Below, in pieces: positions 758-61,770 of a stretch of 64,000 nucleotides of DNA. The stretch's first letter is position 1. Each line of letters opens with the position of its first letter. Under the pieces are notes generated by a model, which was not told the origin of the DNA, did not search any database, and was given only the letters and a program-made list of their open reading frames with translations. Source of the stretch: Candidatus Magasanikiibacteriota bacterium (GTDB lineage: Bacteria > Patescibacteriota > Patescibacteriia > Magasanikbacterales > GWA2-37-8); contig JAHFHX010000005.1 in the NCBI GenBank assembly GCA_023246655.1, positions 67-64,066 on the forward strand, written 5' to 3'. The position numbers and the translations under genes were made by a program.

Positions 758-854
758 CCCTCCCCAACAAGGGGAGGGGCGCGGGGTGGGGTTTCGTTAG
801 TTACAGTGAATGATTAAACCCCTCTCTTTATTTCTCCCCTTGTTGGGGAGAGAT
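758..854. repeat. palindromic repeat family C (ccctcccc..ggggaggggcgcggggtggggtttcg)
   Basis: Same element in inverted orientation inside carA at 59199-59319. Confidence 0.8.
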
Positions 855-866
855 ACTTTTTAAATT

Positions 867-1937
867 CTATTCTTCATTGGGTGGCGGCACATCTTCATGT
901 GGTTTCCCCATTTCCTCTTCTGGTGGTTCGCCTTTTTCTACTACCTCCCATACTTGATGTTGAATTTGTTTGAGGAGTTTTGGATTCTCTTTCAAGAATC
1001 GTTTCGTGGCTTCGCGTCCCACACCCAACTTTTCTTCACCAAACGTGTACGAGTTACCTTTTTTGTCCACCACTTTGTAGGTCACGGCGGTATCAAGCAC
1101 ATCACCCGAAACCGAGATACCTTCATTATACATGATATCAAATTCACAAGTGCGGAACGGCGCAGCCACTTTATTTTTCACAACCTTAACTTTCACGCGA
1201 TTGCCGATAATTTTATCACCCTGTTTAATTTGCGCCGCGCGGCGAATTTCAATTCGGACAGACGAATAAAATTTCAAAGCCATGCCACCAGTCGTGGTTT
1301 CCGGATTCCCAAACACAATCCCAATCTTCATGCGTGTCTGGTTAATAAAAATCACCACCGTCTTAGATTTACTTACAATACCCGTCAACTTCCGTAGCGC
1401 CTGACTCATGAGACGTGCTTGGAGTCCCATGTGACTGTCGCCCATTTCACCTTCAATTTCTGCTTTCGGGACAAGTGCTGCTACCGAGTCAACTACAACA
1501 ACGTCAACCGCATTAGAGCGCACCAGTGTTTCCAAAATTTCTAAAGCTTGTTCACCCGTGTCTGGTTGTGAAATCAAAAGTTCGTCAACTTTCACCCCAA
1601 TTTTTTTGGCATAGTCTGGGTCGAGTGCGTGCTCGGCATCAATAAACGCCGCAATGCCACCCAGCTTTTGCACCTCCGCTACAATGTGTTGGGCAAGCGT
1701 AGTTTTTCCTGATGCTTCCGGACCGTAAATTTCAATCACGCGTCCTCGTGGTACACCGCCAACGCCCAGCGCAATGTCAACTGAGAGACATCCCGTTGGC
1801 ACGGCATCCACCTTCATGGCTTTGGATTCACCAAAGCGCATAATCGCTCCCTCCCCAAACCGAGTTTTAATTTGGTCAATAGCGCTCTCCGCTGCCTTTA
1901 ATTTTTCCTTAACCTCCTCCGATACTTGTTTAACCAT
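867..1937 (-). CDS. recA: recombinase RecA
   Basis: 356 aa; Walker [10 protein letters not shown], RecA L1/L2 regions, acidic C-tail. Confidence 0.95.
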
Positions 1938-2020
1938 AGGAATATTAGTCTAAAGTCTAAAGTCAAAGGTCCAAAAGTCGTTGTGACTTTATAGACTTTC
2001 GACTTTTAACTTTTTGACTA

Positions 2021-2746
2021 TTACAGCCCCATCTTACCGCTATTCTCATTTTTATTCAAACTCACCTGCTCTACCCTCTTTGGCAGTTGCACCACCAAGT
2101 GGCGGGTGATGGTGGAAATTTTGCCATGTTTTTTAGTTGCCTCCACGGTAATGGTGTTAACACCATGGGCCAAATCAATCTTAGTTTCAAATTCACCATG
2201 ATTATTCACCATTGCCGCCTGCCCATTAATAGTAAGAGTTGATTCTGGTTCCGTTTGACCTTGAATAATAGTGTTCAATTGGCTAATTACTTCACCCTCG
2301 AGTGGTGCATACAGTACGAGTTGCGGTGGTCGTACAATTCTAATAATTTGCCCGGTAAGGTAAACACCAAAAAGGAGTACGCCCCCGGCCACCAGGCCAA
2401 GGCGCAACATAGTTGCCAATGATGTAAAAGAAGAATATTTAATGGTTTGATGCGGATGAATTAAAGCTATTCCTTCTAGACCTCCTTCGCGAGTAAATTG
2501 GTCTAAGCAGGCTTCGGTTGGTAGGCCCACCAGGTGAGCGTACTCGCGAATATAGGCCAGACGGAAAGTTCGAGAAGTAGGCAATTTGCGAAAATTTCCT
2601 TGTTCAATAGCGGAAAGATATTTTTTTTGAATGTGGGTAGCACTCGCGATATCATCCAAGGTAATACAACGCTCTTCACGACGTTTCTGAAGTTGCTGCC
2701 CCAGGGAAGTCGTGAGGGGGAGTTTTTTGAAACAAAAGATGGACAT
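2021..2746 (-). CDS. XRE-type HTH domain membrane protein (RodZ-like)
   Basis: N-terminal HTH (ITLDDIASATHIQKKYLSAIEQG), central TM helix, C-terminal beta-rich domain. Confidence 0.5.
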   Translation of the reverse strand: MSIFCFKKLPLTTSLGQQLQKRREERCITLDDIASATHIQKKYLSAIEQGNFRKLPTSRTFRLAYIREYAHLVGLPTEACLDQFTREGGLEGIALIHPHQTIKYSSFTSLATMLRLGLVAGGVLLFGVYLTGQIIRIVRPPQLVLYAPLEGEVISQLNTIIQGQTEPESTLTINGQAAMVNNHGEFETKIDLAHGVNTITVEATKKHGKISTITRHLVVQLPKRVEQVSLNKNENSGKMGL

Positions 2747-2805
2747 ACATTAAAAATCACAATGACCAATTTCCAAAATTCAAAACACCAATTTCACACA
2801 CGGTT

Positions 2806-5217
2806 TTAATCATTGGGGTCTGATTGGTCATTGGTCATTTGAGTTTGGTCATTTAAAACAACACCTCCCGCATCCATGGTCTGCTCTTCAGCGGGAATTT
2901 CGTCCTCTTGGGCGAGTCGAAGATGTTCGGTAAATACTTCGCGTGGTTTGGCACCATCAGCTGGTCCTACTATACCATTCTCTTCCAGCTCGTCAAGAAG
3001 CCGCGCAGCGCGGGCATAGCCTACTTTCATTCGGCGTTGCAAAAGTGATGCACTGGCTTTACCCGATTCCAAAACAATTTTTTTAGCATCCTCAAACAAG
3101 GGGTCTTGGTCATCGCTGACCCCACCAAACATATTTACCGTGCCACCGCTGTTCGTTTTCGCAACAATCGAATCATCATACTCTGGCGGTTCGTCACCCT
3201 TTAGGTAGTTTACTACTTCTTTCATTTCTTCTTCCGAAACGTAGGCACCCTGGAGTCGTTTTGGTTTAGAGAGCTCAGCGGTTAAGAACAGCATGTCGCC
3301 GCGTCCCAACAGTTTGTCGGCACCGGGACAATCTAAAATCGTTCGTGAATCAACAATTGATGCTACTGAAAAGGCAATTCGTGCCGGAATATTAGCCTTC
3401 ATAAGTCCGGTGATGACTTCCACGCTTGGTCGCTGAGTTGCCACGACCAAGTGAATTCCCACTGCGCGTGCCATTTGGGCGAGGCGGATAATTCCAGCCT
3501 CTACCTCGCTGGCTGCCGTCGCCATCAGATCAGCCAATTCGTCAATCACAAAAACAATGTATGGTATCTTTTCCTCCGCAGTTTTATTATACGAAAGAAT
3601 GTCGCGTTTACCGGCGGTGGACAACACATCAAAGCGTCGTTCCATTTCACCCAGCGTCCATTTAAGAGCGTTAATCGTTTTGCCAGCATCAGTTATGACC
3701 GGCGTTAAAAGATGTGGAATACCATTATACAGGGTTAACTCCACTCGTTTCGGATCAACCATAATCATGCGTAATGTTTCCGGTGTATTTTGAAACAAGA
3801 GACTGAGAATAATAGTATTGATACAGACTGTTTTCCCCGAGCCGGTCGCACCGGCAATAAGGAGGTGAGGCATTTTTGGGAGGTCGCCTAACCACACTTT
3901 GCCCGCAACGTCTTTTCCAATAGCAATCATCATGGAATGTTCCCGGGTTTTATAGTCCTGAGTTTCCAATAGTTCACGTAGCGTCACCACGGCAACTTTT
4001 TGATTTGGCACTTCAATTCCGACCAATGACTGCCCGGGAATTGGTGCTTCAATCCGAATGGGATGCGCCGCCAAAGAAAGTGCTAAATCATTTGCCAGTG
4101 CTGTGATACGGGTTAACTTGATTCCCTTGGATGGCTTGAGCGAATATTGCGTCACCGTCGGCCCCACTCGCACTTCACCCATGTCCACCTCGATGCCAAA
4201 ATTTTGTAGAGTATCTTTAATGGTCTCGGCATTCGCTTTAATATCTCCCGAGGTTGGTTTGCTCTTAGATGCACGCAGAATGTCAATCGGCGGAACGTTT
4301 TTATATACCACGGGGGGTTTATGGATAGAAATTTTTTCTTCCGCCGGTTCTTCAGAGTCCGGGGGATCTTTTTCTTCGCTATGCGTTTTTTTTAAAACAT
4401 TTTTATGTTGAAAAATACGTGCCTCCTCGGTTTCATCATCAACGTTCGTTTGGTCGCCTACTAATTCTTCCGCTGCTTCGCTCGGGGGAACAGTGGTTTC
4501 ATAATCGCCTTTGATTTTAAATTTCACGGCGTCTGATTTTTTAAATGAAGCAAAAAACAGCACCACATGCTTACCTAGCCAGCCCAAGACCAAAAAAAAT
4601 TTTTTATGAACAGCCACAATTTGCGCCAGGGAGGTATTAAAGAGAAAGATGATCGAAGCGAGCAGTAGCCCTATGAGAATAAGGAGCGCCCCCCAATAAC
4701 CGACATACGTTCCAAGTGGCCAAGCCAAGGCAAGCCCGACAAGCCCACCACCATAACCCTGTAGTGCCAGCGTCGTCATATCAGCTACCGGTTTGTGCAG
4801 ATGAATGAGGCCGTTGAAACTCAAGAAAAATAGAACTGAACCAAGGGTATGGGTGGAACGATACTCATATTTTACATCCTTTATGAGGAGTGCGGCGACA
4901 ACACCAAGCACGAGGGGGAAGATATAGCGTACCTGGCCAAAAACAATAGCCAGTAACGAATCAATAAACTGTCCTGCGACTCCAGCGAGCGAAAAAAAAC
5001 TAAGGGCGGCAAGACCGGCCACGATACATAACAAAATTGCCAACAGTCCCGGACTGATCTCGGGGTTTACGTCGATTTTTTCATACCAGGTAACCTTTCG
5101 GCGGCGCGGGTAAGAATGAGAGCGTGCGTAGCGCATGGAAGGGAGTATGAAATTAAGGGAATTATTCAGGAGTAAATAACTACGTTTACAATCATGACGA
5201 TGCCCATAGTATAACAT
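2806..5217 (-). CDS. ftsK: DNA translocase FtsK/SpoIIIE
   Basis: N-terminal TM helices, Walker A GATGSGKTV, C-terminal gamma winged-helix (RRMKVGYARAARLLDELE). Confidence 0.9.
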   Translation of the reverse strand: MLYYGHRHDCKRSYLLLNNSLNFILPSMRYARSHSYPRRRKVTWYEKIDVNPEISPGLLAILLCIVAGLAALSFFSLAGVAGQFIDSLLAIVFGQVRYIFPLVLGVVAALLIKDVKYEYRSTHTLGSVLFFLSFNGLIHLHKPVADMTTLALQGYGGGLVGLALAWPLGTYVGYWGALLILIGLLLASIIFLFNTSLAQIVAVHKKFFLVLGWLGKHVVLFFASFKKSDAVKFKIKGDYETTVPPSEAAEELVGDQTNVDDETEEARIFQHKNVLKKTHSEEKDPPDSEEPAEEKISIHKPPVVYKNVPPIDILRASKSKPTSGDIKANAETIKDTLQNFGIEVDMGEVRVGPTVTQYSLKPSKGIKLTRITALANDLALSLAAHPIRIEAPIPGQSLVGIEVPNQKVAVVTLRELLETQDYKTREHSMMIAIGKDVAGKVWLGDLPKMPHLLIAGATGSGKTVCINTIILSLLFQNTPETLRMIMVDPKRVELTLYNGIPHLLTPVITDAGKTINALKWTLGEMERRFDVLSTAGKRDILSYNKTAEEKIPYIVFVIDELADLMATAASEVEAGIIRLAQMARAVGIHLVVATQRPSVEVITGLMKANIPARIAFSVASIVDSRTILDCPGADKLLGRGDMLFLTAELSKPKRLQGAYVSEEEMKEVVNYLKGDEPPEYDDSIVAKTNSGGTVNMFGGVSDDQDPLFEDAKKIVLESGKASASLLQRRMKVGYARAARLLDELEENGIVGPADGAKPREVFTEHLRLAQEDEIPAEEQTMDAGGVVLNDQTQMTNDQSDPND

Positions 5218-5360: not shown

Positions 5361-5785
5361 TTTCTCCCCCACTACACTGCGAGAAGAGATGCATGTTTTA
5401 GCTAACGAACCGCATCTAGAAAATATTACCAAAAAACACAGGAGTGTTTGATGGTAAGAGAGAGAATTATTTTTTAGATATACGATCCGGTTGAAACATC
5501 AACTCTTTCGCAGTTGAGTAGAGGAGTAATTTTGTTGCTCTCATTGTAGTGGAGAGAAAAGAGGGCTGTCAAGTGTACAACTATAATAGGAAATATAAAG
5601 GCTGCGGAAAGTACTCAATGAGAACTTTTTCAGATGTTAAGTTTAATTTTTTTTATATCGCCCGCCTCTCAGGAGTATAATGAGGTTGTGGATAATTTTT
5701 GCGCTTAAGCACTCTTAAGATCAATTTTATTTTACTTTAGCTAAAAAATTTTATCCCTTGACAAATAGTTGTCCCCCTGCTGAGC

Positions 5786-5814
5786 TTGACAATGTTTTTT
5801 CTTTATTATAAAAT
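5786..5814 (+). promoter_or_regulatory. sigma70-type promoter upstream of rpoB (TTGACA-17-TAAAAT)
   Basis: Consensus -35 at 5786-5791, 17-nt spacer, -10 at 5809-5814; second extended -10 tgtataat at about 6059-6066. Confidence 0.55.
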
Positions 5815-6083
5815 GTAGGTACTTTAGAAAATTGTACGGACGATCAGCCTTATTTTGGCTAAAAATAGTTAAAATGAGCTTGATCGGACGAGCGTCTCTC
5901 CAGTTTGAACATCTGAAGAGGTGCATGGTACTCCTTAAATCCACTTTTTAGGCCCGCCGCCATGCCTTTTTTTGCTCGGAAATAAGCCAAAAATAAATAA
6001 ACCTCTCGGACGAGGCCTTTTTTTGTTGTTTGAAACACGAATCCCATAAATCACTATTTTTGTATAATCACTAAACTGAATCT

Positions 6084-9000
6084 ATGTCTATTTTCAAACG
6101 CCAACCATTGTCCTCTACCGATCGCCGTTTTTTTACCCGTGAAAGTTATGTTCCGCTACCTGATCTCATTGAAATCCAAAAAAATTCCTATGATTGGTTT
6201 TTGAAATTTGGTATTAAAGAATTGTTTGAAGAAGTTTCCCCAATCACTGATTTTAGTGGCCGTGATTTAGAATTGTATTTAGAAAATTATTATTTAGATG
6301 AAGCCCGATTTGATGAGGTCGTCTGTCGAGAGCGTAATATTACCTTTGAAGCGCCTCTGCGGGTAACGGCCCGCCTGTTGAATAAACGTACCAAGGAAAC
6401 CAAAACCCAGGAGATTTACTTGGGCGATGTCCCGGTTATGACGACGCGGGGAACTTTTGTTATCAATGGCATTGAACGCGTCGTGGTTTCCCAATTAATT
6501 CGAAGCGCGGGAGCATTTTTTATGGCCGAAAATGTTCGTGGCCGCCGTTACTATGGTGCTAAAATTATTCCCAACCGCGGTGCTTGGATTGAAATTGAAA
6601 CTGATCAGAGTAATGTTATTTGGATTAAGGTTGATCGTAAACGTAAGGTAGCAGCAACGTCACTGCTCCGGGCATTTGGATATGAAACTGATGAACAAAT
6701 TCATGATTTGTTTAAGGATGTTAATAATCACCCGCATATTGATTATGTTGATGCCACTATAAAGAAGGATATGGCCAAGAATATGGACGAAGGGTTGATT
6801 GAAGTATATAAAAGAATTCGTCCCGGGGATTTAGCAACTGCCGATAACGCCAAAAGTCTTATTTATGCAATGTTCTTTAATTTTGATCGCTATGATTTAG
6901 GACGGGTTGGTGTCTACAAATTTAATACTAAATTTGAAATGAATTTATCACCCGAAGATTTCGATGTTAAAGAGAATCGGGTATTGTCGGCCGAAAAGCT
7001 TCTCTATGTGCTTAAAGAAGTGGTGCGATTAAATATTACTCAAGAAGAACCAGATGATGTTGATCACTTGGGCAACCGTCGTGTGCGGGCGGTGGGTGAA
7101 CTTACCCAGAATCGTTTCCGTGTGGGGTTAGCGCGGATGGAGCGCATTATTAAGGATAGAATGAGTACCTATGAACTTGATCAATTAACACCCAATAAAC
7201 TCATCAATGCTCGGCCCGTAACCAGTGCTATCCGGGAGTTCTTTATGAGTTCGCAACTTTCTCAGTTCATGGATCAAACAAATCCTCTTGCTGAATTGGA
7301 GCACAAGCGTCGTCTCTCGGCGCTTGGCCCGGGTGGTTTATCGCGTGATCGCGCTGGCTTTGAAGTGCGTGATGTGCATACTACCCATTATGGTCGCATC
7401 TGTCCGATCGCCACCCCTGAAGGTCCCAATATCGGTCTGGTCAATCATCTTTCCAGTTACGCGCGGATTAATGAATTTGGTTTTATCGAAACACCCTACC
7501 GCACGGTTTTAAAAGAAATTAAAAACGATCCTAAATTTACTGAAGGGGAAACGATACGAGGGACTGTTGAAGGTTATAAAGATGGCACTATAATTAGTAA
7601 AGAAATTGCTACTAAACTTGCTAAATCAAAGGCTGCCACCATTGCAATTAAACCTCGGATTACTAACGAAGTGGTATATCTCAATTCTTTTAAAGAAGAA
7701 AAAGTTATTACCGCCGCAGCCAGCGTTAAAACTGATGATCGCGGGTACTTTGTTGAGGGCACTGTGCCGGCTCGAGTATTTGGTCACCCCAGCGTTGCTG
7801 CCACGAATGATCTTGATTATGTTGATGTTGACTCTAACCAGATCGTAAGTATCGCGACCTCCTGTATTCCGTTTTTAGAACATGATGATGCTACCCGCGC
7901 GCTGATGGGTACCAACATGCAGCGTCAAGCCGTACCGTGTATTAAACCAGAGCCGCCGTTAGTTGGTACCGGTGTCGAGCGTTCCGCAGCAATGTACTCA
8001 GGACAAATGGTGGTAGCAGAAGAAGATGGCGAAGTTACCGAAGTGGATGGTAATCGTATTGTGGTGACAACGAAGAAAAGCGGAGCACACAGTTATCGTC
8101 TCAATAAATTTATTCGTTCCAATGCCTCTACCTGTATTAATCAGCATGTAACCGTCCAGTTGGGCGATAAGGTTAAAAAAGGCCAGCCGCTCACTGATGG
8201 CCCTTGTGTTAAAGACGGTGAGTTGGCGCTGGGCCAAAATGTGCTGGTAGCCTATATGGTATGGGATGGTTTCAATTATGAAGATGCGGTGATTGTATCG
8301 GAACGTTTAGTCCAGAGTGATCGTTATAGCTCCATTCATATTGAGGATTATAGTGTGGATGTCTGTGAAACCAAATTGGGTGCTGAGGTTGTAACGGCTG
8401 ATATCCCCAACGTAAGTGAAGAAAAGCTAAAAAATTTGGATAGTGAAGGTATAATTCGTATTGGTGCCGAAGTAAAATCGGGTGATATTTTGGTCGGCAA
8501 AATTACTCCCAAAGGTGAGACGGAGCTCTCCGCGGAAGAGCGTCTGCTGCGAGCAATATTTGGTGAAAAAGCCCGTGATGTGCGCGATTCTTCGCTTTAC
8601 CTTGAACACGGTGAACATGGAAAAGTCATTGATATTAAAACTTTTTCCGCCGAAAACGGAGACAAACTTGAGCCGGGTGTGATTAAGCAAATTCAAGTTA
8701 CAGTGGCTGATCTGCGTAAAGTTCAAGTGGGCGACAAAATGGCTGGTCGTCATGGTAATAAAGGTGTTATTTCTAAAATTGTCCCCATGTCCGATATGCC
8801 GTTTCTAGAGGATGGCACCCCTGTTGATATTATTCTCTCGCCGCTGGGTGTTGTTTCCCGTATGAATTTGGGGCAACTGCTTGAGACCCACTTGGGGTTG
8901 GCGGCAAACGCACTGGGTTATAAAGCCGCTACGCCTGTCTTAAATGGTATTACCGAAGAGCAAATTAAAACTGAGTTAGCAAAAGCAACTCTCCCCACCA

Positions 9001-17665: not shown

Positions 17666-18151
17666 ATGATAAGTACATTACTATCGGATTTTTCTAGAGT
17701 TTGGCTGTTTCCAAAAGATAAAAATTATCTGGGCGGGCTTAATGAGCTATATGATAAATTAAAAAAACAAGGAAAGTTCAATTTTTTTGATTATTTTGAG
17801 CTCAACGAAGAGCTTTTGACCAAAGTAAAAGATTGGAATCAAAAACTAGAGATATATATTTTTACAACTGGTCATATACAAAATACTCCGGGTGTCATAG
17901 AACGCGTTAAGCCGTTGGTGAAGGGAATTTATTCCGCGGAAGATTTACCCATTAATAAATTATCTCCCGAAGGCTTTGTCTATATGGCCCAACTCATTGG
18001 TAAAAAATCGGAAGAAATTTTGTATATCGACGATAAAGCAGCAAATCTAGAAAGAGCGCAACAGGCAGGAACAGCAATCTGCTTGTATACAGAAAATAAA
18101 TTGTTGTTTCAACATATCGATAATCTGTCTAATCAAAGTAAATCAGCGTAA
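17666..18151 (+). CDS. HAD-like hydrolase domain protein (degenerate N-terminal motif)
   Basis: C-terminal LYIDDKAANLERAQQAGT resembles HAD motif III/IV; no DxD nucleophile motif. Confidence 0.35.
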   Translation: MISTLLSDFSRVWLFPKDKNYLGGLNELYDKLKKQGKFNFFDYFELNEELLTKVKDWNQKLEIYIFTTGHIQNTPGVIERVKPLVKGIYSAEDLPINKLSPEGFVYMAQLIGKKSEEILYIDDKAANLERAQQAGTAICLYTENKLLFQHIDNLSNQSKSA

Positions 18152-18159
18152 TCTGTGTT

Positions 18160-18693
18160 ATGGTCCGCATTCTCGGTATCGACCCCGGCTTTGGCCGCAT
18201 TGGCTACGGGGTAATTGAACACAAGAAAAACAGCACTGACTGGCAAGCCGTTAGTTATGGTTGTATTTCCACCAACCCCAAGGAAACCTTCGTTGAACGC
18301 CTCAAAGACCTGCATGAAGAACTCATCGATCTCATCAAAGAATACCAGCCTACCCGCATGGCTGTGGAAGAATTATTTTTTTTCAAGAATTTAAAAACCG
18401 CCATTGAAGTTGCCCAAGCTCGTGGAGTGATTCTTCTCACGGCAGTTGAAAGCAGTCTCCCCGTCGACGAATTTACTCCGCTTCAAGTAAAACAAGCCAT
18501 GACCGGCTACGGCCGGGCCGAAAAAGGTCAAATGCAAAAAATGGTGGCGATGATTTTAGGAATCAAAGGCAAAATTAAATCCGACGACGCGGCGGATGCG
18601 CTGGCGGTGGCGCTGACGGCGGGTCAGTCACTCTGGGTCGCAAAAATAAAATCCGGATATACGGATGCATCCGGATCTACAGATAAAAAATAA
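18160..18693 (+). CDS. ruvC: crossover junction endodeoxyribonuclease RuvC
   Basis: ILGIDPGFGRIGYGVIE N-terminus, catalytic acidic residues; C-terminal 12 aa encoded by inverted repeat. Confidence 0.9.
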   Translation: MVRILGIDPGFGRIGYGVIEHKKNSTDWQAVSYGCISTNPKETFVERLKDLHEELIDLIKEYQPTRMAVEELFFFKNLKTAIEVAQARGVILLTAVESSLPVDEFTPLQVKQAMTGYGRAEKGQMQKMVAMILGIKGKIKSDDAADALAVALTAGQSLWVAKIKSGYTDASGSTDKK

Positions 18694-22219: not shown

Positions 22220-22233
22220 AAAATTACAGAAAC

Positions 22234-22262
22234 AAAAAACCCGCTGATGAGGCGGATTTTTT
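22234..22262. terminator. bidirectional terminator (cccgc-tgatgag-gcgg, A-run and T-run)
   Basis: Immediately precedes conserved boundary motif 22257-22292. Confidence 0.5.
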
Positions 22263-22292
22263 GTCTCGTTTGTGCACAAGGTGAGATGCCGG
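22257..22292. repeat. conserved island-boundary motif ttttttgtctcgtttgtgcacaaggtgagatgccgg
   Basis: Reappears at 34917-34990 with a 36-bp palindromic insertion; both copies sit 3' of GC-rich minus-strand cargo. Confidence 0.7.
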
Positions 22293-22355
22293 AGATTCAT
22301 GCCGGCTCATGGGGTGACGAACCAGGATTCGTCGTCCTCTCCTTTTTGTCGCTGG

Positions 22356-22796
22356 TTACTCGGTGTCCGGGTAGACCAGGCACGTGGGGTCGTCGAGCGG
22401 GATGAAGGGCAGATGCATGGAATGCACCAGCAATCCTTCCGGTCCGGTCTCGAAGGTGTGAAGTGTGCCGCGCGGCATCCACACGCGCATGCCGGGGACG
22501 AGCTCGTGCTCCATGAGTTCGCCGTTGCGTTCCGCCTTGAACTGGCCGCCGCCGGAGATGATCGAAACGATACGATCGCTCTTCGGGTGCAAGTGGAGCC
22601 GCTCGCCCTCGACGTATCCAGCCGGGAACTTGATGAAAAGTTCCCCAACCAGCCCTTCCCGGATGATCCAGGCCGTCATGTAGCTCTCGTAGTACACCCT
22701 TCCTCTGTTGAGCGACGGAACCGGCAACCGTTCCAAATACTCAATGAAGTTTCCGTTTTCCCACCTGCGGGCGATTTCTTCGCTGAGGTTGGTCAT
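22356..22796 (-). CDS. cupin domain protein (GC-rich, Shine-Dalgarno-bearing)
   Basis: Cupin motifs HLHP...E...G and PRGTLHTFE; aggagg 5 nt upstream of ATG; GC visibly above native background. Confidence 0.7.
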   Translation of the reverse strand: MTNLSEEIARRWENGNFIEYLERLPVPSLNRGRVYYESYMTAWIIREGLVGELFIKFPAGYVEGERLHLHPKSDRIVSIISGGGQFKAERNGELMEHELVPGMRVWMPRGTLHTFETGPEGLLVHSMHLPFIPLDDPTCLVYPDTE

Positions 22797-22804
22797 GCTA
22801 CCTC

Positions 22805-23176
22805 CTACCGGTAAGGGTGATCTTTCAATTCAGGCGGTGACGTCGGCGGCCTGAATTTTTTTTCCAACCACCTTCGCCAGGGCCCGTGATAATGATCCCC
22901 TGAAGCACTAGGGAATCTCACGTTAAGTAGAGCCATATAAAGGAACAGAAAACCAATAACTAAAATTAAGAAAGACAGGCTCTTAATCCCCTCGGGGAAC
23001 CAAGGCTGGTGGGTCGCCCATGCCAAAAGATTTAGCGGGACTCCCACTTCCAAAATAAAAATAAAGATGTCGGCGAAGCCCTTGTGGTTGGCCCAGACAT
23101 AGGCCGCCACCGGTATAAGCTTGATACAACACACGAAGATGATGCTCCGCGCGATACTACGAATGCGTTCGCTCAT
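22805..23176 (-). CDS. small multi-TM membrane protein
   Basis: Start at internal Met MSERIRS; 3-4 predicted TM helices; part of island 1. Confidence 0.4.
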   Translation of the reverse strand: MSERIRSIARSIIFVCCIKLIPVAAYVWANHKGFADIFIFILEVGVPLNLLAWATHQPWFPEGIKSLSFLILVIGFLFLYMALLNVRFPSASGDHYHGPWRRWLEKKFRPPTSPPELKDHPYR

Positions 23177-23313
23177 GGCTGTCTCCTTGTTTTGGTTCGT
23201 TTGAACACTACACCATACTACATTTTTTGTCAATACTTTTCTACATAATCTTATCCACAGATAGAGTAAAAATTATAGCATTATTCACATTATTTTAGCT
23301 AAATTATAAGTAC

Positions 23314-23342
23314 TTGACAAAATACCAGCATTATTATAAAAT
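23314..23342 (+). promoter_or_regulatory. sigma70-type promoter TTGACA-17-TAAAAT for TrmB-family gene
   Basis: Consensus hexamers with 17-nt spacer, about 45 nt upstream of ATG 23387. Confidence 0.5.
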
Positions 23343-23386
23343 AAAAATGTAGTAATTTTTCTACAACATTTATTTAAAAAACAACT

Positions 23387-24158: not shown

Positions 24159-24264
24159 AACACAGATTACACAGATTGACGACGAGGATTACGCAGATGT
24201 GATCCGTCAATTACCTCCGTCTTCACAATCTGTGTAGCTTACTTTAATCAGCGTAATCTGTGTT
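24159..24264. repeat. repeat family F (cacagattacgcagat / aatcagcgtaatctgtgttatg)
   Basis: Palindromic copies; 22-mer aatcagcgtaatctgtgttatg also immediately precedes ruvC ATG (18138-18159). Confidence 0.7.
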
Positions 24265-25371
24265 ATGAACAAAAAAATTCTCTCCGAACTCTCCCCCGGT
24301 CTGCGCAAACTCATTGTTACCGACACCACTTCCAAAACCAATCGCATCGCCGGCATCCACGCGCATACTTCCAAAGCCAAAAGCCCAGTTTCCACATATG
24401 CCATGGAAACATTACAACACCTTAACGGCGGTTCCACACTCAACGCCGCACTTTGGCTTAAGGAACATCTCGATAATGGCGGCAAGCTCGTGGTTACGCT
24501 CGCGGGTGCTTTGAGTTCGTTCCAAATTGGTGTTATGCTTGCGGAACTCATTCGCCAAGGCAAAGTTCATCTCATCTCGGCAACGGGCGCTAACCACGAA
24601 GAATCGTATTACCGCTACGTCGCGCACTCCCATTACGCCTACATTCCCCGCTACACCGAGCTCACTCCCGAGCAAGAAGCCGAACTGCGCGACGCGGGCC
24701 TCCGCCGCATCACTGATACTTTTCTCCCCGAAGATGAATCCGTCCGCATCATGGAGCCGCACCTCCTTAAAATGTGGAAGGAAGCCGAAAAAAAAGGCAA
24801 GCGCTATTTCCCCCACGAATATTTCCGTCGCCTCTTCTCCGAAGGTCTTATTAAGCCCGACAAAGGCGCCAACCCAGCCGACTGCTGGACGTACGAAGCG
24901 TACAAAAAAAATGTTCCCACTGTCATCCCGGGCTTTGAAGACTCCACCATGGGAAATATCTTCGCGAGCTACGTCTACAATGGCCCGCATAAAAAGAAAG
25001 AGGATACGAGCGTCAGTGGTAGTGTGATGAAAACCGGCCTAGAATATTTTGGCTTTCTCTACGATTGGTATCAAGCTGAATCAGCCAATGCCCCGATTGC
25101 ATTTCTCCAACTCGGTGGTGGCATTGCCGCTGATTTCCCCATCTGCGTGGTTCCATCTCTCAAACATGATCTTAAATTAAAAAAAGTTCGTGACTGGGCT
25201 GGGTTTATTGAAATCGGCTCCAGCCCCATGTCCTACGGTTCCTACTCTGGCGCCGGCGGCAAAGAAAAAATTACGTGGGATAAGTTATCCACGAAGAGTT
25301 ATTACCAGATTATTCAGAGTGATGTGACTGTAGCGTTTCCGTGGATTGCGGCGGTGTTACTTGGGCTATAG
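24265..25371 (+). CDS. deoxyhypusine synthase family protein (homospermidine synthase-like)
   Basis: Blocks VVTLAGALSS, ISATGANHEE, QLGGGIAADF, ITWDKL, FPWIAAVLLG align to the DHS NAD-binding core. Confidence 0.75.
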   Translation: MNKKILSELSPGLRKLIVTDTTSKTNRIAGIHAHTSKAKSPVSTYAMETLQHLNGGSTLNAALWLKEHLDNGGKLVVTLAGALSSFQIGVMLAELIRQGKVHLISATGANHEESYYRYVAHSHYAYIPRYTELTPEQEAELRDAGLRRITDTFLPEDESVRIMEPHLLKMWKEAEKKGKRYFPHEYFRRLFSEGLIKPDKGANPADCWTYEAYKKNVPTVIPGFEDSTMGNIFASYVYNGPHKKKEDTSVSGSVMKTGLEYFGFLYDWYQAESANAPIAFLQLGGGIAADFPICVVPSLKHDLKLKKVRDWAGFIEIGSSPMSYGSYSGAGGKEKITWDKLSTKSYYQIIQSDVTVAFPWIAAVLLGL

Positions 25372-28190: not shown

Positions 28191-29180
28191 TTAAATTATT
28201 TTTTGTGGTTTTATTTTTTTAAATCTCCTTATAAATCCCTGTACACCGTTTTGATCCATCATCCCGGCCTGTGGCCCGTGTTGTTGCACCACATTACACG
28301 CATTGGCCGTGCCCCATTCGAGCGCATGGGGGATATCGTGTCCAAAATGCCTGGCCGCGATGTAAGCTGAAGAAAATGCGTCCCCAGCGCCGGTTTTCGC
28401 TACTACTTCAACAGGGTACGGATCCAAGTGCCATAATTCGTCTCTGTCACCCGCCCAGGCACCTCGTTTGGCGTCTGTCAGTGCGACTTCTCTAACCCCC
28501 ATCCCTAAAAGTTCGTGAATCACTGCCGTAATACTTTTTTCTTCTTCCTCCGTCCGCCCTAAAATTTTTTCGGCTTCTTCTTTATTAACGATCAAGAGAT
28601 CCGCTCGGCGTACCACATCACGTAAGGTCGTCAAAGCGTATTTAAGCAGGTACGAACCAGGGTTGATCGCCAATTTAATCGTCGGGTGGTCCATTAAAAG
28701 TTTTATAAGAGCCGTCTGTACTGTATCGTGGCCTTCACTTAGTCCCGTGTAATAAATCCATTCAGTCGCCGGAAAGGGTTGCGGCCATTGGTAGTTTTTT
28801 TTGTCAGTGTAGGACAATATTGTCCGTTCCTGTTTGTAATTTAAAATTATGGAATACCGAGTTTTGGCATCCTTATCAAACGTAATATAATCAGTATTTA
28901 CGTTCTGTTTTTTAAGTTCCTCAATCGCACTTTGTCCATTCATATCACCACCGACGGTGCTCACGACCGCCGTAGTCAGCCCAAGTTTTTGCGCTCCCAC
29001 CGCGACATTGGGCGCGTTACCACCCAGAGCTTGGAAACTATCAACAATCGGAATTTTAGCGCCATAATCCAGGCATAGTTCCATCTCCTTAAGTTCGGCA
29101 ACCTGACATTCCGCGCAGGAATCATCAATTTGAATGTGAGTATCAATGACGGGGTCGCCAATCGCGATTAAGTTATACAT
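28191..29180 (-). CDS. PfkB family carbohydrate kinase
   Basis: GG motif ALGGNAPN near N-terminus and TGAGDAF signature near C-terminus. Confidence 0.8.
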   Translation of the reverse strand: MYNLIAIGDPVIDTHIQIDDSCAECQVAELKEMELCLDYGAKIPIVDSFQALGGNAPNVAVGAQKLGLTTAVVSTVGGDMNGQSAIEELKKQNVNTDYITFDKDAKTRYSIILNYKQERTILSYTDKKNYQWPQPFPATEWIYYTGLSEGHDTVQTALIKLLMDHPTIKLAINPGSYLLKYALTTLRDVVRRADLLIVNKEEAEKILGRTEEEEKSITAVIHELLGMGVREVALTDAKRGAWAGDRDELWHLDPYPVEVVAKTGAGDAFSSAYIAARHFGHDIPHALEWGTANACNVVQQHGPQAGMMDQNGVQGFIRRFKKIKPQKII

Positions 29181-29192
29181 ATATGTACGAAT

Positions 29193-29724
29193 ATACGAAA
29201 TAATACGAACTTACGAACTACGAACACACCATGCATGATGTGCTAATTTAGAAACAAAATACTTACGAACTACGAACAAATTAATATTCATTAATTACTC
29301 TTTTAATTACAACTCCACGGTAAGTAAAACAGGCGATAATAGCTAATTTTAAGTTGAGCGCGGACAAGTATTGTTTTGTTTGTTCAATGACAGAAGCTGA
29401 AATAAATTCGCCGCGCTTTAATTCTAAAACAATTTTATTTTCAATCAAAAAATCAAGAAAATATTTACCGACAATTTCATTTTCGTACCGGAGAGGTACA
29501 TAAACTTGTTCGCCAAAGATAAGGTGTCTGTATCCTAGCCCAATGCCAACGGCTTTCTGGTAATATTTCTCTTGATGTCCGCCGCCAAGGCGTTTAGAGA
29601 CATCGATTAAAATGCCGTTAATAATAAAACTCAACTCTGGAAATAGTAAATCTTTTTTATTTACTACATATTGTTTCCCTCCACCAGGCATATTCGTAGT
29701 TCGTAAGTTCGTATTATTTCGTAT
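29193..29724. mobile_element. IR-flanked cassette carrying a GxxExxY-family ORF (tacgaa-type IRs)
   Basis: 33-bp IR atacgaaataatacgaacttacgaactacgaa (29193-29225) and its reverse complement at 29692-29724. Confidence 0.7.
29281..29691 (-). CDS. GxxExxY family protein
   Basis: GHQEKYY (GxxExxY) motif; homolog of ORF 18694-19107. Confidence 0.7.
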   Translation of the reverse strand: MPGGGKQYVVNKKDLLFPELSFIINGILIDVSKRLGGGHQEKYYQKAVGIGLGYRHLIFGEQVYVPLRYENEIVGKYFLDFLIENKIVLELKRGEFISASVIEQTKQYLSALNLKLAIIACFTYRGVVIKRVINEY

Positions 29725-29738
29725 GTTCGGATATAGTT

Positions 29739-30047
29739 TTATTCTCGTTCATATTCCTTAACCATGTCAGAGCTGTGCTTGTGTTTCCCTCGTATAATCT
29801 GAATTAATTCTCGTCCTGCAACGAGGAACATCAACCCCATCGCAAACATGACGATCTTGTCATGATGGACTAATGCGTACACAAAGAGCGATGCTGAAGC
29901 CACTACAAAGACCGCGTCCTGACGTTTTTCTGCTTCGAGTAATACGCCATACGCAAGTGCGAGCGCACCCATAAAGCCGACGACGTAGACGGCGAGGTCG
30001 ACGAACGAGGTTGGGAGGTTGGGAAGTAGGTTTTCGAGAGGAATCAT
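29739..30047 (-). CDS. LAB_N-like small membrane protein
   Basis: SLFVYALVHHDKIVMFAMGLMFLVAGRELIQI resembles lipid-A-disaccharide synthase N-terminal domain. Confidence 0.4.
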   Translation of the reverse strand: MIPLENLLPNLPTSFVDLAVYVVGFMGALALAYGVLLEAEKRQDAVFVVASASLFVYALVHHDKIVMFAMGLMFLVAGRELIQIIRGKHKHSSDMVKEYERE

Positions 30048-30945: not shown

Positions 30946-31435
30946 AGGATTGTAGGCGAGTAGGACGGTAGGATTGTAGAAAAATTAGTTAAAATTATTT
31001 ACCATCTTGTTGAGCATTCTCATTACTTCGTCTAATAAAGTATCGCATTTTTTAAAATCAAGCTGACTACCAAACGGTAAGCGCCTCGTGATTTCTAGTT
31101 GAGTTTCTAATTCCGATCCTGAACCAAAGGCAATGAGTAAAAATTGGCGATATTCCTTTTCACCTCCGCGGCGTCTTCCTTCAGCAATGTTTGACGGTAT
31201 AGAAACGGCAGCGCGTCTCATTTGAGATGCCAAACCATACATTTCTGACTTTGGAAATTTATCCGTTAATTCGTAAATACAAACCACCAACTCCATCGCT
31301 TTCTGCCAAACTATGAGGTCTTTGTATGTATCCCGCATATTTATTAGGATGGTAGGTGAGTAGAGTGTGGTAAACAAGTGAAAGACACTACTGCCGTAAT
31401 CACCCTACTTTCCTACCGTCCTACAATCCTATTAC
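30946..31435. mobile_element. IR-flanked cassette carrying a four-helix-bundle ORF
   Basis: gtaggacggtagga-containing IRs at 30946-30978 and 31403-31435 (reverse complement). Confidence 0.6.
30985..31377 (-). CDS. four helix bundle protein (TIGR02436 family)
   Basis: DLIVWQKAMELVV..Y.LTDKFPKSEMYGLASQMRRAAVSIPSNIAEG signature. Confidence 0.8.
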   Translation of the reverse strand: MFTTLYSPTILINMRDTYKDLIVWQKAMELVVCIYELTDKFPKSEMYGLASQMRRAAVSIPSNIAEGRRRGGEKEYRQFLLIAFGSGSELETQLEITRRLPFGSQLDFKKCDTLLDEVMRMLNKMVNNFN

Positions 31436-34745: not shown

Positions 34746-34840
34746 AATGTAAGCAGATTAAGCAGAGTAAGTTTGTAAGCAGATTAAGCAGAAATAACGT
34801 CGCGATTTTTAATCTGCCTATTCTGCTTACCTTGCTTACT
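34745..34840. repeat. repeat family G (taagcagattaagcaga palindromic)
   Basis: gtaagcagattaagcaga x2 and inverted partner aatctgcctattctgcttac. Confidence 0.6.
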
Positions 34841-34891
34841 AACTGGATTATTATATCTTTTTCCTCTATTTTTGGCAACCTCAAGAAAAAC

Positions 34892-34923
34892 AAAAAACCA
34901 CCGTTTCCCACGGTAGGTTTTTT
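34892..34923. terminator. bidirectional terminator (accgt-ttccc-acggt, A-run and T-run)
   Basis: Precedes the second copy of the conserved boundary motif. Confidence 0.5.
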
Positions 34924-34990
34924 GTCTCGTTTGTGCCCGTCTGCAACGCTAGCGCTAGCTTAGCGGGCAGGCACAAGGTGAGATGCCCGG
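34917..34990. repeat. conserved island-boundary motif, copy 2 with internal 36-bp palindrome
   Basis: ggttttttgtctcgtttgtgc[ccgtctgcaacgctagcgctagcttagcgggcaggc]acaaggtgagatgcccgg. Confidence 0.7.
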
Positions 34991-35067
34991 CGTTGTTGCC
35001 TGCCGGGCGAAGACGCCATTTTGAGAACGTGTGTGGCGCACGGTTGCGGTGGAGGGTCATTCAGCGA

Positions 35068-35784
35068 TCACCCGTCGCGCTTGCGGGAGACGAGCACCCG
35101 GTAGCTCATGGAGATGGGGATCTTAGACGGGAAATCGTAGAACGCCAAGATGCGGTTGTCGCCGCGGCCCATGAGACCCGGCACGCGCAGGTGGTAACGG
35201 CCCGAATGCCACGAGTGGTCCCTCCACGCGACGATGGGCCGACGGAGCTGTGCTTTGGGATTGGCGGCGGCGAAGGCGAGGAGCTCGGGGAAGCCCTCGA
35301 GCTGGTATCCTTTCTCCTCGATCTCGGCGATGCCCTCGAGATCGTTGATCGTACGATCGAACTCGTACAGCTCCAGGTCGACCTTGCGGATGCCCGTGCC
35401 CTCGATCGGGAGCATTCTGGGGGAGAGCTCGCCGCCGGTACCGCTGATATCCTGGTCCGCGGCCTTCAGCAGGCCTTTGAAGCCGAGATCGAGGTTGACC
35501 AGAGTAGGATAGATGTGCTTCTCGCTGCGCCCGATCCCGATGCCGATCAGTATGGTCTGCTGCAGAGCCGCCTGGAAGGCGCGCCCAGCCGATCCCGCCT
35601 CACCGGCGCTCTTGGCGATGGATTTGATGAGGTCGGAGTGGGGGTTGTCGCCGGGGAGCTTCGGCTCGTGGCTGGAGATGAACTCGGAGCCGTCCTCGGT
35701 GAAAGTCGTTCGGAACTCCTCCTCGGGTAGGTCCGAGAGCACCAGGCTGTAGTTGTCGTCCGTCTTCAGGATGTTCATCCTCAT
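35068..35784 (-). CDS. hypothetical protein, GC-rich foreign-like gene 2 of island 2
   Basis: About 239 aa from ATG 35784 (MRMNIL); GIGIGRS glycine-rich segment; no confident family assignment. Confidence 0.5.
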   Translation of the reverse strand: MRMNILKTDDNYSLVLSDLPEEEFRTTFTEDGSEFISSHEPKLPGDNPHSDLIKSIAKSAGEAGSAGRAFQAALQQTILIGIGIGRSEKHIYPTLVNLDLGFKGLLKAADQDISGTGGELSPRMLPIEGTGIRKVDLELYEFDRTINDLEGIAEIEEKGYQLEGFPELLAFAAANPKAQLRRPIVAWRDHSWHSGRYHLRVPGLMGRGDNRILAFYDFPSKIPISMSYRVLVSRKRDG

Positions 35785-35816
35785 GGTCGTTCCCTTTCTG
35801 GCCAGGTTCAACTGGC

Positions 35817-36155
35817 CTACCAACTGGAAGACTGGTTGGCGATGAGCAGGTAGAGGTAATTCTCAGCGAAAGAATCAGGACTGATCCTCCCTCCGAAGCC
35901 GAGGAAGAGGGGGTCGCTGGCCCCCGGCATCTCGCCAGGCTCCACACCGAGGGCCACGATCGTTCCCTCGTCAGCGATCTGGGGACGGTACTGCTGGAGT
36001 GCCTTGAGGTGGCGCCGACTCGCGAGCGTGAAGTGGTGCCTCTGCGCGATCTGCCGGATGATGTCGGCGTCGTTCCGCCGGGCAAGGATCAAGCAGGCAC
36101 GCACCACTTCATGGTCGACTATGAGCTCGATGCTTCTAGCACCGTAAGGGGTCAT
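35817..36155 (-). CDS. hypothetical protein, GC-rich foreign-like gene 1 of island 2
   Basis: About 113 aa from ATG 36155 (MTPYGARS) with strong Shine-Dalgarno gaggagg 5-6 nt upstream. Confidence 0.45.
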   Translation of the reverse strand: MTPYGARSIELIVDHEVVRACLILARRNDADIIRQIAQRHHFTLASRRHLKALQQYRPQIADEGTIVALGVEPGEMPGASDPLFLGFGGRISPDSFAENYLYLLIANQSSSW

Positions 36156-36421
36156 GACGTCCTCCTCTCTTTTCTTTGCCGGGACCCATTCCCAGCCTCC
36201 AGCCAATTCTTTTATAAGAACTCGCTGGAGGCCAGGACTATGTCCAGCAGAGAGCCACCAGGCTATTCTGCTGGGTTTTGTAAAGAACAGTGTTTCACTG
36301 CGGAAACTAGTGAGTATACGTTATTTTTACAATCTTGTCAATATATACCAATAGATAGTAAGTATAATTTTGGCTTATTTTAAATAAAAATATAGAAATA
36401 TACAAAATATGTCGGAATAAC

Positions 36422-36450
36422 TTGACATATTTTTGAGAATGTGCTATACT
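36422..36450 (+). promoter_or_regulatory. sigma70-type promoter TTGACA-17-TATACT for second TrmB-family gene
   Basis: Consensus hexamers with 17-nt spacer; palindrome tccctctcccggcgggagaggga (about 36464-36500) lies between promoter and ATG. Confidence 0.55.
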
Positions 36451-36513
36451 ATAAACACTTATTCCCTCACCCTCTGTCCCTCTCCCGGCGGGAGAGGGAC
36501 ACTTGTGGCCACT

Positions 36514-54062: not shown

Positions 54063-54083
54063 AGTAGATGGTTATTAGTTAAT

Positions 54084-54196
54084 CCCCCCTCGAGGGGGGC
54101 TCACGGGGGGTGTAAGACTCTTGTGTGGCCGTTTCGTCGTCCAACCGTTAGCGACGCAAAGGTCTCACACCCCCACTACCCCCCTCGAGGGGGGAA
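54084..54196. repeat. family B palindromic element overlapping the carB 3' end
   Basis: cccccctcgaggggggc...ggtgtaag...tctcacaccccc...cccctcgagggggg; supplies the last about 15 codons and stop of carB. Confidence 0.75.
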
Positions 54197-61654: not shown

Positions 61655-61770
61655 ATCTGCGAACATACGAACGGCTACGAACGTACGAACTACGAATAAT
61701 AATTAACGATGCCATTTTTGTTCGTAATTCGCATGTTCGTACTAAATTCGTACGTTCGTACATAATTACG
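61655..61770. repeat. repeat family E (tacgaa/ttcgta palindromic)
   Basis: cgaacatacgaacggctacgaacgtacgaactacgaa ... ttcgtaattcgcatgttcgtactaaattcgtacgttcgtac. Confidence 0.7.

Follow-up and report, generated by a model that had tools for sequence, protein, structure and literature searches.

A structured, terminator-bearing element closes candidate cargo slots beside TrmB-family regulators in Magasanikbacteria

The DNA considered here (the window) is a 64,000-nt stretch of a Candidatus Magasanikiibacteriota bacterium (GenBank assembly GCA_023246655.1, contig JAHFHX010000005.1, positions 67 to 64,066). It contains an island, island A, in which a boundary element is followed by two minus-strand open reading frames (ORFs) with Shine-Dalgarno (SD) sequences, encoding a predicted cupin and a small membrane protein, and then by a divergent gene for a TrmB-family regulator, TrmB-A. 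A second copy of the element closes another island, island 2, which has different cargo ORFs and the regulator TrmB-B (Table 1). The window has exactly two TrmB genes, one per element copy. The architecture recurs in related assemblies, the element is structured, it is linked to TrmB-family genes, and the cargo turns over at orthologous slots. Our reading, to which we give a probability of about one half, is that these islands represent a lineage-specific, regulator-guarded, recombination-prone cargo slot, of which island A is one of two copies in the window.

The cupin gene of island A stands apart from its surroundings. Its coding sequence has a GC content of 0.59 and a third-codon-position GC content (GC3) of 0.80, a z score of 4.3 against 54 host ORFs (mean 0.437, standard deviation 0.084, maximum 0.61), and it has an AGGAGG just upstream, whereas an SD-like pentamer between positions −20 and −4 was found in 0 of the 54 host ORFs. 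A first-pass annotation of this DNA had described the cupin and membrane genes together as a GC-rich, SD-bearing island. That description is accurate for the cupin gene and for the strand and SD sequence of the membrane gene, but the composition of the membrane ORF is host-like (GC 0.49, z 1.1), and the deviation is limited to the cupin segment. The GC-rich segment covers approximately 22291–22900 (0.52–0.66 in 100-nt windows, compared with the window mean of 0.45), and GC is back to the host level to the right of about 22900. Because the last ~35 codons of the membrane ORF pass through a hairpin and T-run into the GC-rich DNA, the layout suggests that a host-like membrane gene had the cupin segment attached at its end. 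The membrane protein has no match in Pfam or PADLOC.

Against Pfam Cupin_2, the 146-residue protein scores 18.4 bits, under the cut-off of 27.2. The Protein Data Bank matches that Foldseek returned for its AlphaFold model (pLDDT 91.1) are all cupins (E ~1e-6), the best being quercetinase, ergothioneine dioxygenase, and KdgF (E 1e-6), and the three residues of an HxH...H metal-binding motif, His68, His70, and His113, are invariant in eight homologues. Judged by this model, the protein is a member of the cupin superfamily, a double-stranded β-helix with a His-rich motif, and the current cargo of slot A is thus predicted to be a metal-binding mono-cupin enzyme. The island-A arrangement is found again in independent assemblies (L001, L002, and a third European Nucleotide Archive contig), as is island 2 (in L053), which indicates that the islands are not assembly artefacts.

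Table 1. Features of island A and island 2 (window coordinates)
Feature	Position	Strand	Details
Hairpin T, bidirectional intrinsic terminator	22229-22267	both	16-pair stem, U-runs each way
Motif of the first-pass annotation; core is hairpin P2	22257-22290 (P2 22264-22286)	+	
Hairpin P1, alpha type (GCCGG-AGATTCATG-CCGGC)	22288-22306	+	
Hairpin P0 (GGGGTGACGAACCAGGATTCGTCGTCCT) then CTCCTTTTTG	22311-22348 (hairpin 22311-22338)	+	between P1 and cupin stop codon
Predicted cupin-fold protein, 146 aa	22356-22796	-	SD AGGAGG at 22801-22806, 5 nt upstream (cctcct on + strand)
Small membrane protein, 123 aa	22805-23176	-	three hydrophobic segments; SD AAGGAGA at 23182-23188
Hairpin (ATTCAGG...CCTGAAT) then T-run	22827-22864	+	inside 3' tail of membrane ORF, at low-GC/high-GC junction
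AT-rich divergent promoter region, 210 nt	23177-23386		
Predicted TrmB-A promoter, TTGACA-17-TAAAAT	23314-23342	+	11/12 consensus matches
Predicted minus-strand promoter, island A	23320-23292	-	
Palindromic operator candidate TGTAGTAATTTTTCTACA	23348-23365		partner TACTACATTTTT at 23216-23227, 12/12 complementary
TrmB-A, predicted TrmB-family winged-helix regulator, 243 aa	23387-24118	+	
Second element copy (island 2)	34886-35043	+	T 34890-34925; P2 34925-34983
Island-2 P2 tip, 35 nt	34937-34971		extra hairpin 34985-35008
Island-2 P1 (loop TTTGAGAACGTGT) and GCGCAC	end at 35041		
Island-2 cargo	35068-36155	-	238-aa ORF and 112-aa ORF, both with SD
5'-leader hairpin, island-2 slot	36182-36245	-	just upstream of cargo SD; absent from slot A
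TrmB-B, predicted TrmB-family regulator, 256 aa	36514-37284	+	widely conserved orthologue family in Magasanikbacteria/Patescibacteria

Both regulators exceed the PF01978 cut-off of 25.6 bits (49.7 and 55.7 bits; E 3e-13 for TrmB-A), and residues 8–79 of TrmB-A match TrmBL2 structures (E 6e-5). By their N-terminal winged-helix domain, TrmB-A and TrmB-B are thus assigned to the TrmB family. They share with TrmB and TrmBL2 (PF01978; PDB 5bqt, 3qph) the N-terminal winged helix-turn-helix, a length of ~245–260 residues as in TrmBL2, and, as predicted here, divergent autoregulated promoters with palindromic operators. In contrast to those proteins, the slot regulators have a C-terminal portion of 170 residues that matches nothing at the sequence level, and they are bacterial (Patescibacteria) paralogues paired with variable cargo. 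The consensus promoter that had been proposed for the regulator gene of island A is borne out, with 11 of 12 positions matching, and together with the predicted minus-strand promoter it makes up a back-to-back pair of sigma-70-type promoters. The proposal that the two islands share their flanks is not: the TrmB proteins are 26% identical, the promoters and 5' leaders differ, and only the 3' element is common to both. The palindrome TGTAGTAATTTTTCTACA, which is repeated at the divergent promoter of island A and conserved upstream of TrmB-A orthologues in L003, L004, L005, L006, and L008, is likely the TrmB-A operator. The island-2 slot has another palindrome, AAAATATGTC-N10-GACATATTTT, at 36404–36433. 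TrmB-B belongs to a family with 185 relatives at E < 1e-20. The nearest TrmB-A orthologues are 52–60% identical and have different neighbors and no element, and the loci of TrmB-A orthologues (L003–L014, JGI) likewise include no empty site in which the motif would lead directly into the TrmB gene, an arrangement that the first-pass annotation had put forward as worth finding.

The element is a composite of ~85–160 nt in which a bidirectional terminator, T, is followed by a hairpin, P2, and a covarying hairpin, P1, and which closes with GCGCAC. P2 is the core of the ~35-nt motif that had been seen at both islands. Each motif half, TTTTTTGTCTCGTTTGTGC and CACAAGGTGAGATGCC, has exactly two occurrences in the window (22257–22290, and 34918–34936 with 34972–34987). 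The second copy is therefore exact, but the motif is contiguous at island A only; at island 2 the halves are separated by a 35-nt palindromic insert that sits at the tip of the hairpin formed by them. The left half has a chance expectation of 0.03, with two or more matches in 0 of 100 shuffles, and the right half alone has an expectation of 0.34, with two or more matches in 5 of 100; the combined gapped pattern gave 0.00 in shuffles.

At island A, T consists of an A-run, a stem-loop, and a T-run (GAAACAAAAAACCCGC-TGATGAG-GCGGATTTTTTGTCTC). The stem-loop varies among copies, and on both strands T has the GC-containing stem-loop and U-run of an intrinsic (Rho-independent) terminator. The P2 arms at island A are TCTCGTTTGTG/CACAAGGTGAGA, with a bulged G and a UGCA tip; across aligned copies they are TCTCGTTTGTGC/GCACAAGGTGAGA, again with a bulged G, and the tip is 0, 15, 22, 35, or 37 nt long. 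The stem of P1 covaries (CG/GC swaps), its loop is TTTGAACGTGT across the aligned copies, and both tip-bearing and tipless P2 are found with each P1 type. The stem of T covaries over 13 copies. In a model-fitted alignment of these copies, 88.9% of paired cells can pair, compared with 76% after shuffling and ~50% when partners are slid, and 17 pairs are changed on both sides; these figures are favorable estimates because the alignment leans towards the covariance model. In copies anchored by protein homology, P2 varies and the changes tend to preserve pairing. Examples are GTGCAC to GAGCTC in L049, and C-G to U-G and G-U to A-U in L051. On these alignments we regard the element as real and structured.

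The non-Watson-Crick pairs differ in strand. In T, cargo-sense G-U cells outnumber those of the opposite strand by 13 to 4, as expected for a terminator of the cargo transcript. In P2 all 14 G-U cells lie on the plus strand, antisense to cargo, and become A-C mismatches in the mRNA. Because 11 of the 14 represent one inherited pair, the bias amounts to three or four independent events, and it is suggestive of P2 folding on the strand antisense to cargo. These observations bear on an alternative in which the element acts in RNA, with P1-P2-T serving as a 3'-untranslated-region module through which the mRNAs of accessory genes under TrmB control are stabilized, processed, or regulated, and with cargo turnover being ordinary gene flux in which the element has no part. 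On the cargo strand the element follows the stop codon and leads into the terminator, as this alternative would have it, and the covariation of P1 and T and the cargo-sense wobble bias of T agree with it as well. The P2 mismatches in cargo-sense RNA argue against it, and so do the homology breakpoints and mosaicism in or at the element and the P2-like unit duplicated around an ORF in L052, which are described below. We consider this alternative unlikely as a full account, although an RNA role of P1 and P2 would be compatible with the cargo-slot reading.

No known family accounts for the element. In Rfam there was no family match, with the best score at 22.5 bits (threshold 49) and only terminator-like. 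BLAST of the 53-mer covering P2 and P1 found no match in plasmid and phage records, and scans of viral contigs with either motif half gave only chance matches lacking the other half. The element sequence fits neither the attC consensus, nor a dif-like 11-6-11 site, nor the 5' end of a group II (IIC) intron, nor a tRNA or tmRNA fragment. A small conserved peptide starting from AAGGTGAGATG was rejected, as the frames are unconserved beyond Met-Pro and the ATG is missing in L038 and L049. P2 was also considered as an operator common to both TrmB proteins and was dismissed because the two slots carry different palindromic operators.

To place the element in other genomes, the gapped motif pattern, with exact P2 arms required, was scanned over 185,579 species genomes of the GTDB collection. 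It returned six loci, all of the contiguous form, with one exact core in each of six assemblies. Three of these are labeled Magasanikbacteria, one Patescibacteria, one a Bdellovibrionales metagenome-assembled genome (MAG), and one a Gammaproteobacteria MAG; we suspect that the last two are mis-binned. Together with the TrmB homologues, the motif matches assign the window to Candidatus Magasanikbacteria within the Patescibacteria. With two covariance models, R1 for the full element and R2 without the terminator, 13 copies were found in Magasanikbacteria assemblies: the two in the window, L035–L040, L045, L049, L051, and two in L052. L045, L049, L051, and L052 were reached independently through homologues of TrmB-B. 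With filters off, the window itself has only two copies, at 59 and 44 bits, and the next match scores 9.4 bits; the island-2 copy, which accounts for the 44 bits, scores 79 bits in the covariance-model search. An apparent element downstream of a cupin homologue in L032/L033 was withdrawn as a lead, the R1 match (28.9 bits) being carried by the terminator and R2 finding nothing.

All 7 copies with enough flanking sequence (island A, island 2, L036, L037, L040, L045, and L049) close SD-bearing cargo that is divergent from a TrmB-family gene, and L051 and L052 also match this arrangement. The order of terminator, motif, SD-bearing cargo, and divergent regulator that the first-pass annotation had read from the two islands is therefore general among these loci. 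Because L036, L037, and L040 were found by DNA pattern alone, their TrmB neighbors are independent evidence for the linkage. The copies in L035 and L039 end at contig ends; in L038 a gene for an IS4-family DDE transposase (1023–2397) directly follows the element, between it and GC-richer DNA. In most copies the cargo stop codon is 5–45 nt from the element end, with the SD sequence at the 5' junction, and the slots are dispersed within the core chromosome.

This linkage can be set against coincidence, that is, two unrelated acquired islets lying beside a repeat fused to a common terminator and beside members of an abundant regulator family. The repeat would resemble repetitive extragenic palindromes (REPs) or miniature inverted-repeat transposable elements (MITEs). 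Many other short hairpin repeat families do occur in the window, direct repeats flanking the islands are at chance level, and the AACAAAAAACC...GGTTTTTTG type of terminator is generic in these genomes, with weak R1 matches in L008, L014, and L041. As with REPs and bacterial interspersed mosaic elements, we are dealing with short imperfect palindromes downstream of genes, beside terminators and lineage-specific. However, the element is scarce, with 2 copies in 64 kb and one exact core per assembly in the six GTDB assemblies, where REP and MITE families have many dispersed copies per genome; it is a composite of three hairpins strictly tied to TrmB-cargo units, and no RAYT/TnpA gene was seen. 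Coincidence would also have to explain two copies in 64 kb, each beside one of only two TrmB genes, the same association in three genomes found by pattern alone, and the persistence of the element, amid changing cargo, in TrmB-B orthologues as distant as 66% identity. We consider it very improbable.

Exchange of cargo is seen most directly at island 2. In L049, whose TrmB-B is 91% identical, the rpiB flank, T, the left arm of P2, the leader hairpin, both promoters, and TrmB-B align with the window. Homology ends inside P2 at 34936 and restarts by the leader hairpin at 36178, with none across 34937–36177; the swapped segment holds the 112-aa and 238-aa ORFs in the window and one unrelated 175-aa ORF in L049. 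L045 (TrmB-B 80% identical) has a third cargo at the orthologous slot, and L051 (68%) and L052 (66%) retain the element, again with other cargo. The leader hairpin is kept in L049 (1243–1304, 87%) and in L045 (~4725–4775), where CTCCAGC/GCTGGAG is changed in compensatory fashion to CTCCTGC/GCAGGAG, and it may be a cis-regulatory RNA.

A second pair of loci gives a related picture. L036 and L040 have the upstream gene, T, P2, and P1 in common, and their homology stops exactly after GGGCGCAC. Beyond that point neither the cargo nor the TrmB gene is the same (23% identity between the TrmB proteins), and the two loci align again from a tRNA-Ser gene onward. Partial tRNA-Ser(UGA) duplicates lie beside the swapped segment of cargo and TrmB gene, in L036 (oriented) at 6520–6707 and in L040 (oriented) at 5706–5942, with a 5' fragment in the former and a 50-nt 3' fragment in the latter, which suggests recombination at the tRNA-Ser gene.

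Different content between the same flanks, with no mobility genes, is what defines a minimal mobile element, and both island 2 compared with L049 and L045 and L036 compared with L040 show it. Those described in Neisseria (Saunders and Snyder 2002, cited in PMC3787668) are alike in having variable genes between conserved flanks in close relatives and in having no mobility genes. They differ in that one flank of the slot is a short structured element common to non-orthologous slots and the other is a dedicated regulator with its promoter.

Further signs of recombination lie within the element. Behind the TrmB-B orthologue of L052 is an array (1798–3754) of three ORFs, each followed by a P1/P2-type unit, in the order 212-aa ORF, P1 with a diverged P2, 73-aa ORF, diverged P2 again, 225-aa ORF, and full element. 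An exact 44-nt P2-like repeat (2671–2714 and 3039–3082) brackets the 73-aa membrane ORF. The terminal element of this array is a mosaic: its P2 with a 37-nt tip is like that of island 2 (49/66 identical), whereas to the right of GAGATGCC it is like island A (50/79 identical, compared with 46/96 for island 2). The P0 region of island A is also shared with L052 (1925–1975). This is the one tandem ORF-site array, none being present in the window or at the other slots. On account of the array, the mosaic element, and the mixing of P2 and P1 types, the sequence patterns would place crossovers in or adjoining the conserved core.

The exchanged genes themselves are diverse. The cargo proteins include the cupin, small membrane proteins, the 112-aa and 238-aa pair, the 175-aa protein, a receiver-like 190-aa protein, two radical S-adenosylmethionine (radical-SAM) enzymes, two paralogous ~145-aa proteins, and the 212-, 73-, and 225-aa proteins of L052. 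They are mutually unrelated except for the two radical-SAM enzymes (24% identity). Models of defence systems gave only a generic radical-SAM similarity to viperins, for L037 and L040 cargo. At all seven evaluable slots the GC3 of the cargo exceeds that of its own TrmB gene; it is 0.68–0.87 at 5 of 7 slots, where island 2 has 0.87 (238-aa ORF, 35068–35784) and 0.78 (112-aa ORF, 35817–36155), and TrmB genes range from 0.31 to 0.54. Values of 0.49–0.61 were found for the cargo of L036, L051, and L052, the membrane ORF of island A, and an ORF in L035. Homologues are rare: a set of 5.8 billion sequences yielded 8 of the cupin and 5 of the 238-aa protein. The cupin homologue in L032 (56% identical, GC3 0.70) and the homologue of the 238-aa protein in L041 (48% identical, GC3 0.94) each lie beside host-like genes on a Patescibacteria-like contig. 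The cupin family is not intrinsically GC-rich, as a homologue on a phage-like contig has a GC3 of 0.32. By composition and by SD sequences, we would call the cargo foreign.

Apart from the radical-SAM pair, the sole cargo match is that between the 238-aa protein of island 2 and its closest relative, the variable protein of a diversity-generating retroelement (DGR) in L041, where the gene does not occupy an element-bearing slot. The DGR of L041 comprises a variable repeat at 6428–6558, a template repeat at 6965–7095, and a reverse transcriptase gene at 7467–8576; the repeats are 131 nt long with 15 mismatches, 14 of them at template adenines, and the reverse transcriptase gene has a GC3 of 0.47, compared with 0.94 for the variable-protein gene. 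The window has no repeat of 35068–35200, and no reverse transcriptase was found among the ORFs scanned; as the window lacks a template repeat, the idea that a DGR acts on island 2 was rejected. A four-helix-bundle "23S rRNA intervening sequence protein" that is weakly bAvd-like is encoded at 30985–31338, ~4 kb away from the island. In L032, a gene for a DUF559 endonuclease-like protein lies between a TrmB gene and the cupin homologue and is flanked by a CTCTCCCCTTATAGGGGAGAG-type repeat.

In form, the slot behaves most like integron cassettes, and in its absence of machinery, most like minimal mobile elements. As in integron arrays (e.g. the VCR arrays of Vibrio), the units are compact, an ORF with a structured 3' site. 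P2 is an imperfect hairpin with an extrahelical base and a variable tip on the bottom strand, a likeness to attC at the level of structure only, and it pairs better on the strand antisense to the ORF. A resident promoter is predicted to drive expression, and there is one array. Chromosomal integrons have attC sites that are peculiar to a lineage and resemble one another; likewise, the element copies are lineage-specific and mutually similar, with ORFs that are unrelated and compositionally foreign. An integron-like capture can be formulated from these parallels. P2 and P1 would form an attC-like hairpin from single-stranded DNA of the strand antisense to cargo, and a recombinase would insert a cassette (SD sequence, ORF, P1, and half of P2) behind the TrmB-controlled promoter. 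The 14 to 0 distribution of P2 wobble cells, the 44-nt repeat around one ORF of L052, and the P2/P1 mosaics all fit. Nevertheless, no tyrosine or serine recombinase was found among the window ORFs scanned or beside any locus, a typical slot has just one element and one or two ORFs, the breakpoints do not share a fixed position, and the wobble distribution owes most of its cells to the one inherited pair. Among ~45 window ORFs and the called genes of related loci, no Phage_integrase or other recombinase domain was found; there is no IntI and no attI, and the R and L box core sites RYYYAAC...GTTRRRY are absent from both strands of 22257–22312 and 34918–35043. Unlike integrons, moreover, the slots are dispersed in the core chromosome, each with a TrmB-family regulator and an element fused to an intrinsic terminator. 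Capture of this kind is therefore doubtful in our view.

The cargo-slot reading can be spelled out as a sequence of events. TrmB-A would bind the palindromic operators and repress both the cargo promoter and its own, with a ligand controlling the two; T would end the cargo transcript and insulate neighboring genes. The P2 core and its surroundings would provide the 3' crossover sequence for swapping or adding cargo ORFs, and the second crossover would fall near the SD sequence or 5' leader, or beyond the TrmB gene. As to the enzymology, we weigh two routes against each other. One is homologous recombination of the RecA type, which would follow the uptake of DNA and use the element as a movable stretch of homology; we hold it at rather less than even odds. 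The other, a site-specific recombinase dedicated to the hairpin, we hold at somewhat lower odds still.

Several findings weigh against the reading of the islands as cargo slots. L047 (TrmB-B 76% identical) has no element and has rmuC as neighbor, and L050 (77%) has GC-rich cargo with a hairpin of its own and no element. At the slots examined, no recombinase, excised circle, or empty site was seen. The breakpoints differ, lying inside P2, after P1, or, in L050, near the promoter, a pattern that a single site-specific cut explains less well than homologous or illegitimate recombination does. The number of copies is small (13, at ~11 loci, all in metagenome assemblies), and the invariance of P2 in L035–L040 is partly by construction because the genome scan required exact P2 arms. 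Recent import of cargo from a GC-rich donor is not proven, since diverged homologues are also GC-rich and homologues are few. The first-pass suggestion of a cassette system or reused site is fair for island 2 and its relatives because orthologous slots carry unrelated cargo; for slot A, which has no close relative, exchange is supported by analogy only.

The companion suggestion, that the motif is att-like, fared less well. The best direct repeats flanking the islands are 15/19 for the cupin region (22259 versus 23190) and 12/13 for island 2 (35019 versus 36431), each at chance level in ~1.5 kb, and nothing similar was found at other slots. Domain scans found no recombinase among ~45 window ORFs or the called genes of related loci, and no integrase or transposase among those window ORFs. 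The motif is at most a candidate for an att function. Nor do the islands resemble tRNA-targeting islands, as the 64-kb window has 0 tRNA genes, no integrase, and flanking repeats at about the chance level.

The remainder of the window has ~45% GC and reads as core chromosome, with recA, ftsK, ruvA/ruvC, ileS, pyrimidine genes, carAB, gatB, and tmk. A polyamine cluster is present as well (speA-like gene, deoxyhypusine-synthase-like gene, agmatine deiminase, and CN-hydrolase); no mobile-element gene and no 16S gene were found in the window. Several repeat families are present. A hairpin family of ~55 nt (TGTCATCCCGAGCGAGGC...GCCGACGAGGGATCTCTGGCTCA) has at least nine window copies in both orientations (40231, 45837, 48635, 52934, 53090, 55489, 57632, 58184, and 58236), mostly between the pyrimidine and carAB genes. 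Small palindromic repeats of types CTCTCCCCTTATAGGGGAGAG and CCCCCCTCGAGGGGGG occur elsewhere in the window (816–853, 36475–36501, and 59202–59239; 54079–54198, 56110–56229, and 58993–59116) and in L032 (990–1100 and 1500–1540). Near-identical leaders of ~22 nt (AATCAGCGTAATCTGTGTT plus ATG) precede ruvC and the deoxyhypusine-synthase-like gene (18122–18162 and 24227–24267), with an inverted copy near 63900 (63889–63928). Unit repeats of CAGATTA and TAAGCAG lie in nearby promoters, e.g. at 34750–34840 upstream of rpiB, and arrays of TACGAA(C/A)-type heptamers in several intergenic regions (29175–29224, 29691–29742, 61655–61698, and 63360–63401) may be binding sites of another regulator.

A bolder proposal can be derived from the cargo-slot reading. 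Magasanikbacteria might possess a gene-capture system of dispersed single-slot "mini-integrons," each with its own TrmB-family sensor. In this proposal, a recombinase that has no relation to IntI would cut and rejoin the P2/P1 hairpin site, read antisense to cargo, and foreign ORFs would be placed precisely between a resident promoter and leader and a terminator. We think this improbable as a whole. About half of Parcubacteria have been reported to lack the anti-SD motif (PMC9297842), and we therefore also considered that SD-bearing, high-GC3 cargo with a common 3' structure is made for use in another (host) cell, an idea that we find scarcely credible. No description of such a slot system was found in the literature on Magasanikbacteria, on TrmB proteins of the candidate phyla radiation (CPR), or on integrons and attC sites of Patescibacteria.

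Little is known about the way in which the Patescibacteria, or CPR, with their tiny genomes, acquire accessory functions and bring them under control. If the reading is correct, a conserved slot that is guarded by a regulator and receives unrelated foreign ORFs would offer this group a defined way of acquiring genes that can be put to the test, and the models R1 and R2 would provide a sequence handle for listing CPR accessory genes. A dedicated hairpin recombinase, if it exists, would represent a new cassette system beside integrons. The slots also prompt one to ask how expression of SD-bearing, GC-rich genes is achieved where the genome's own genes have no SD sequences.

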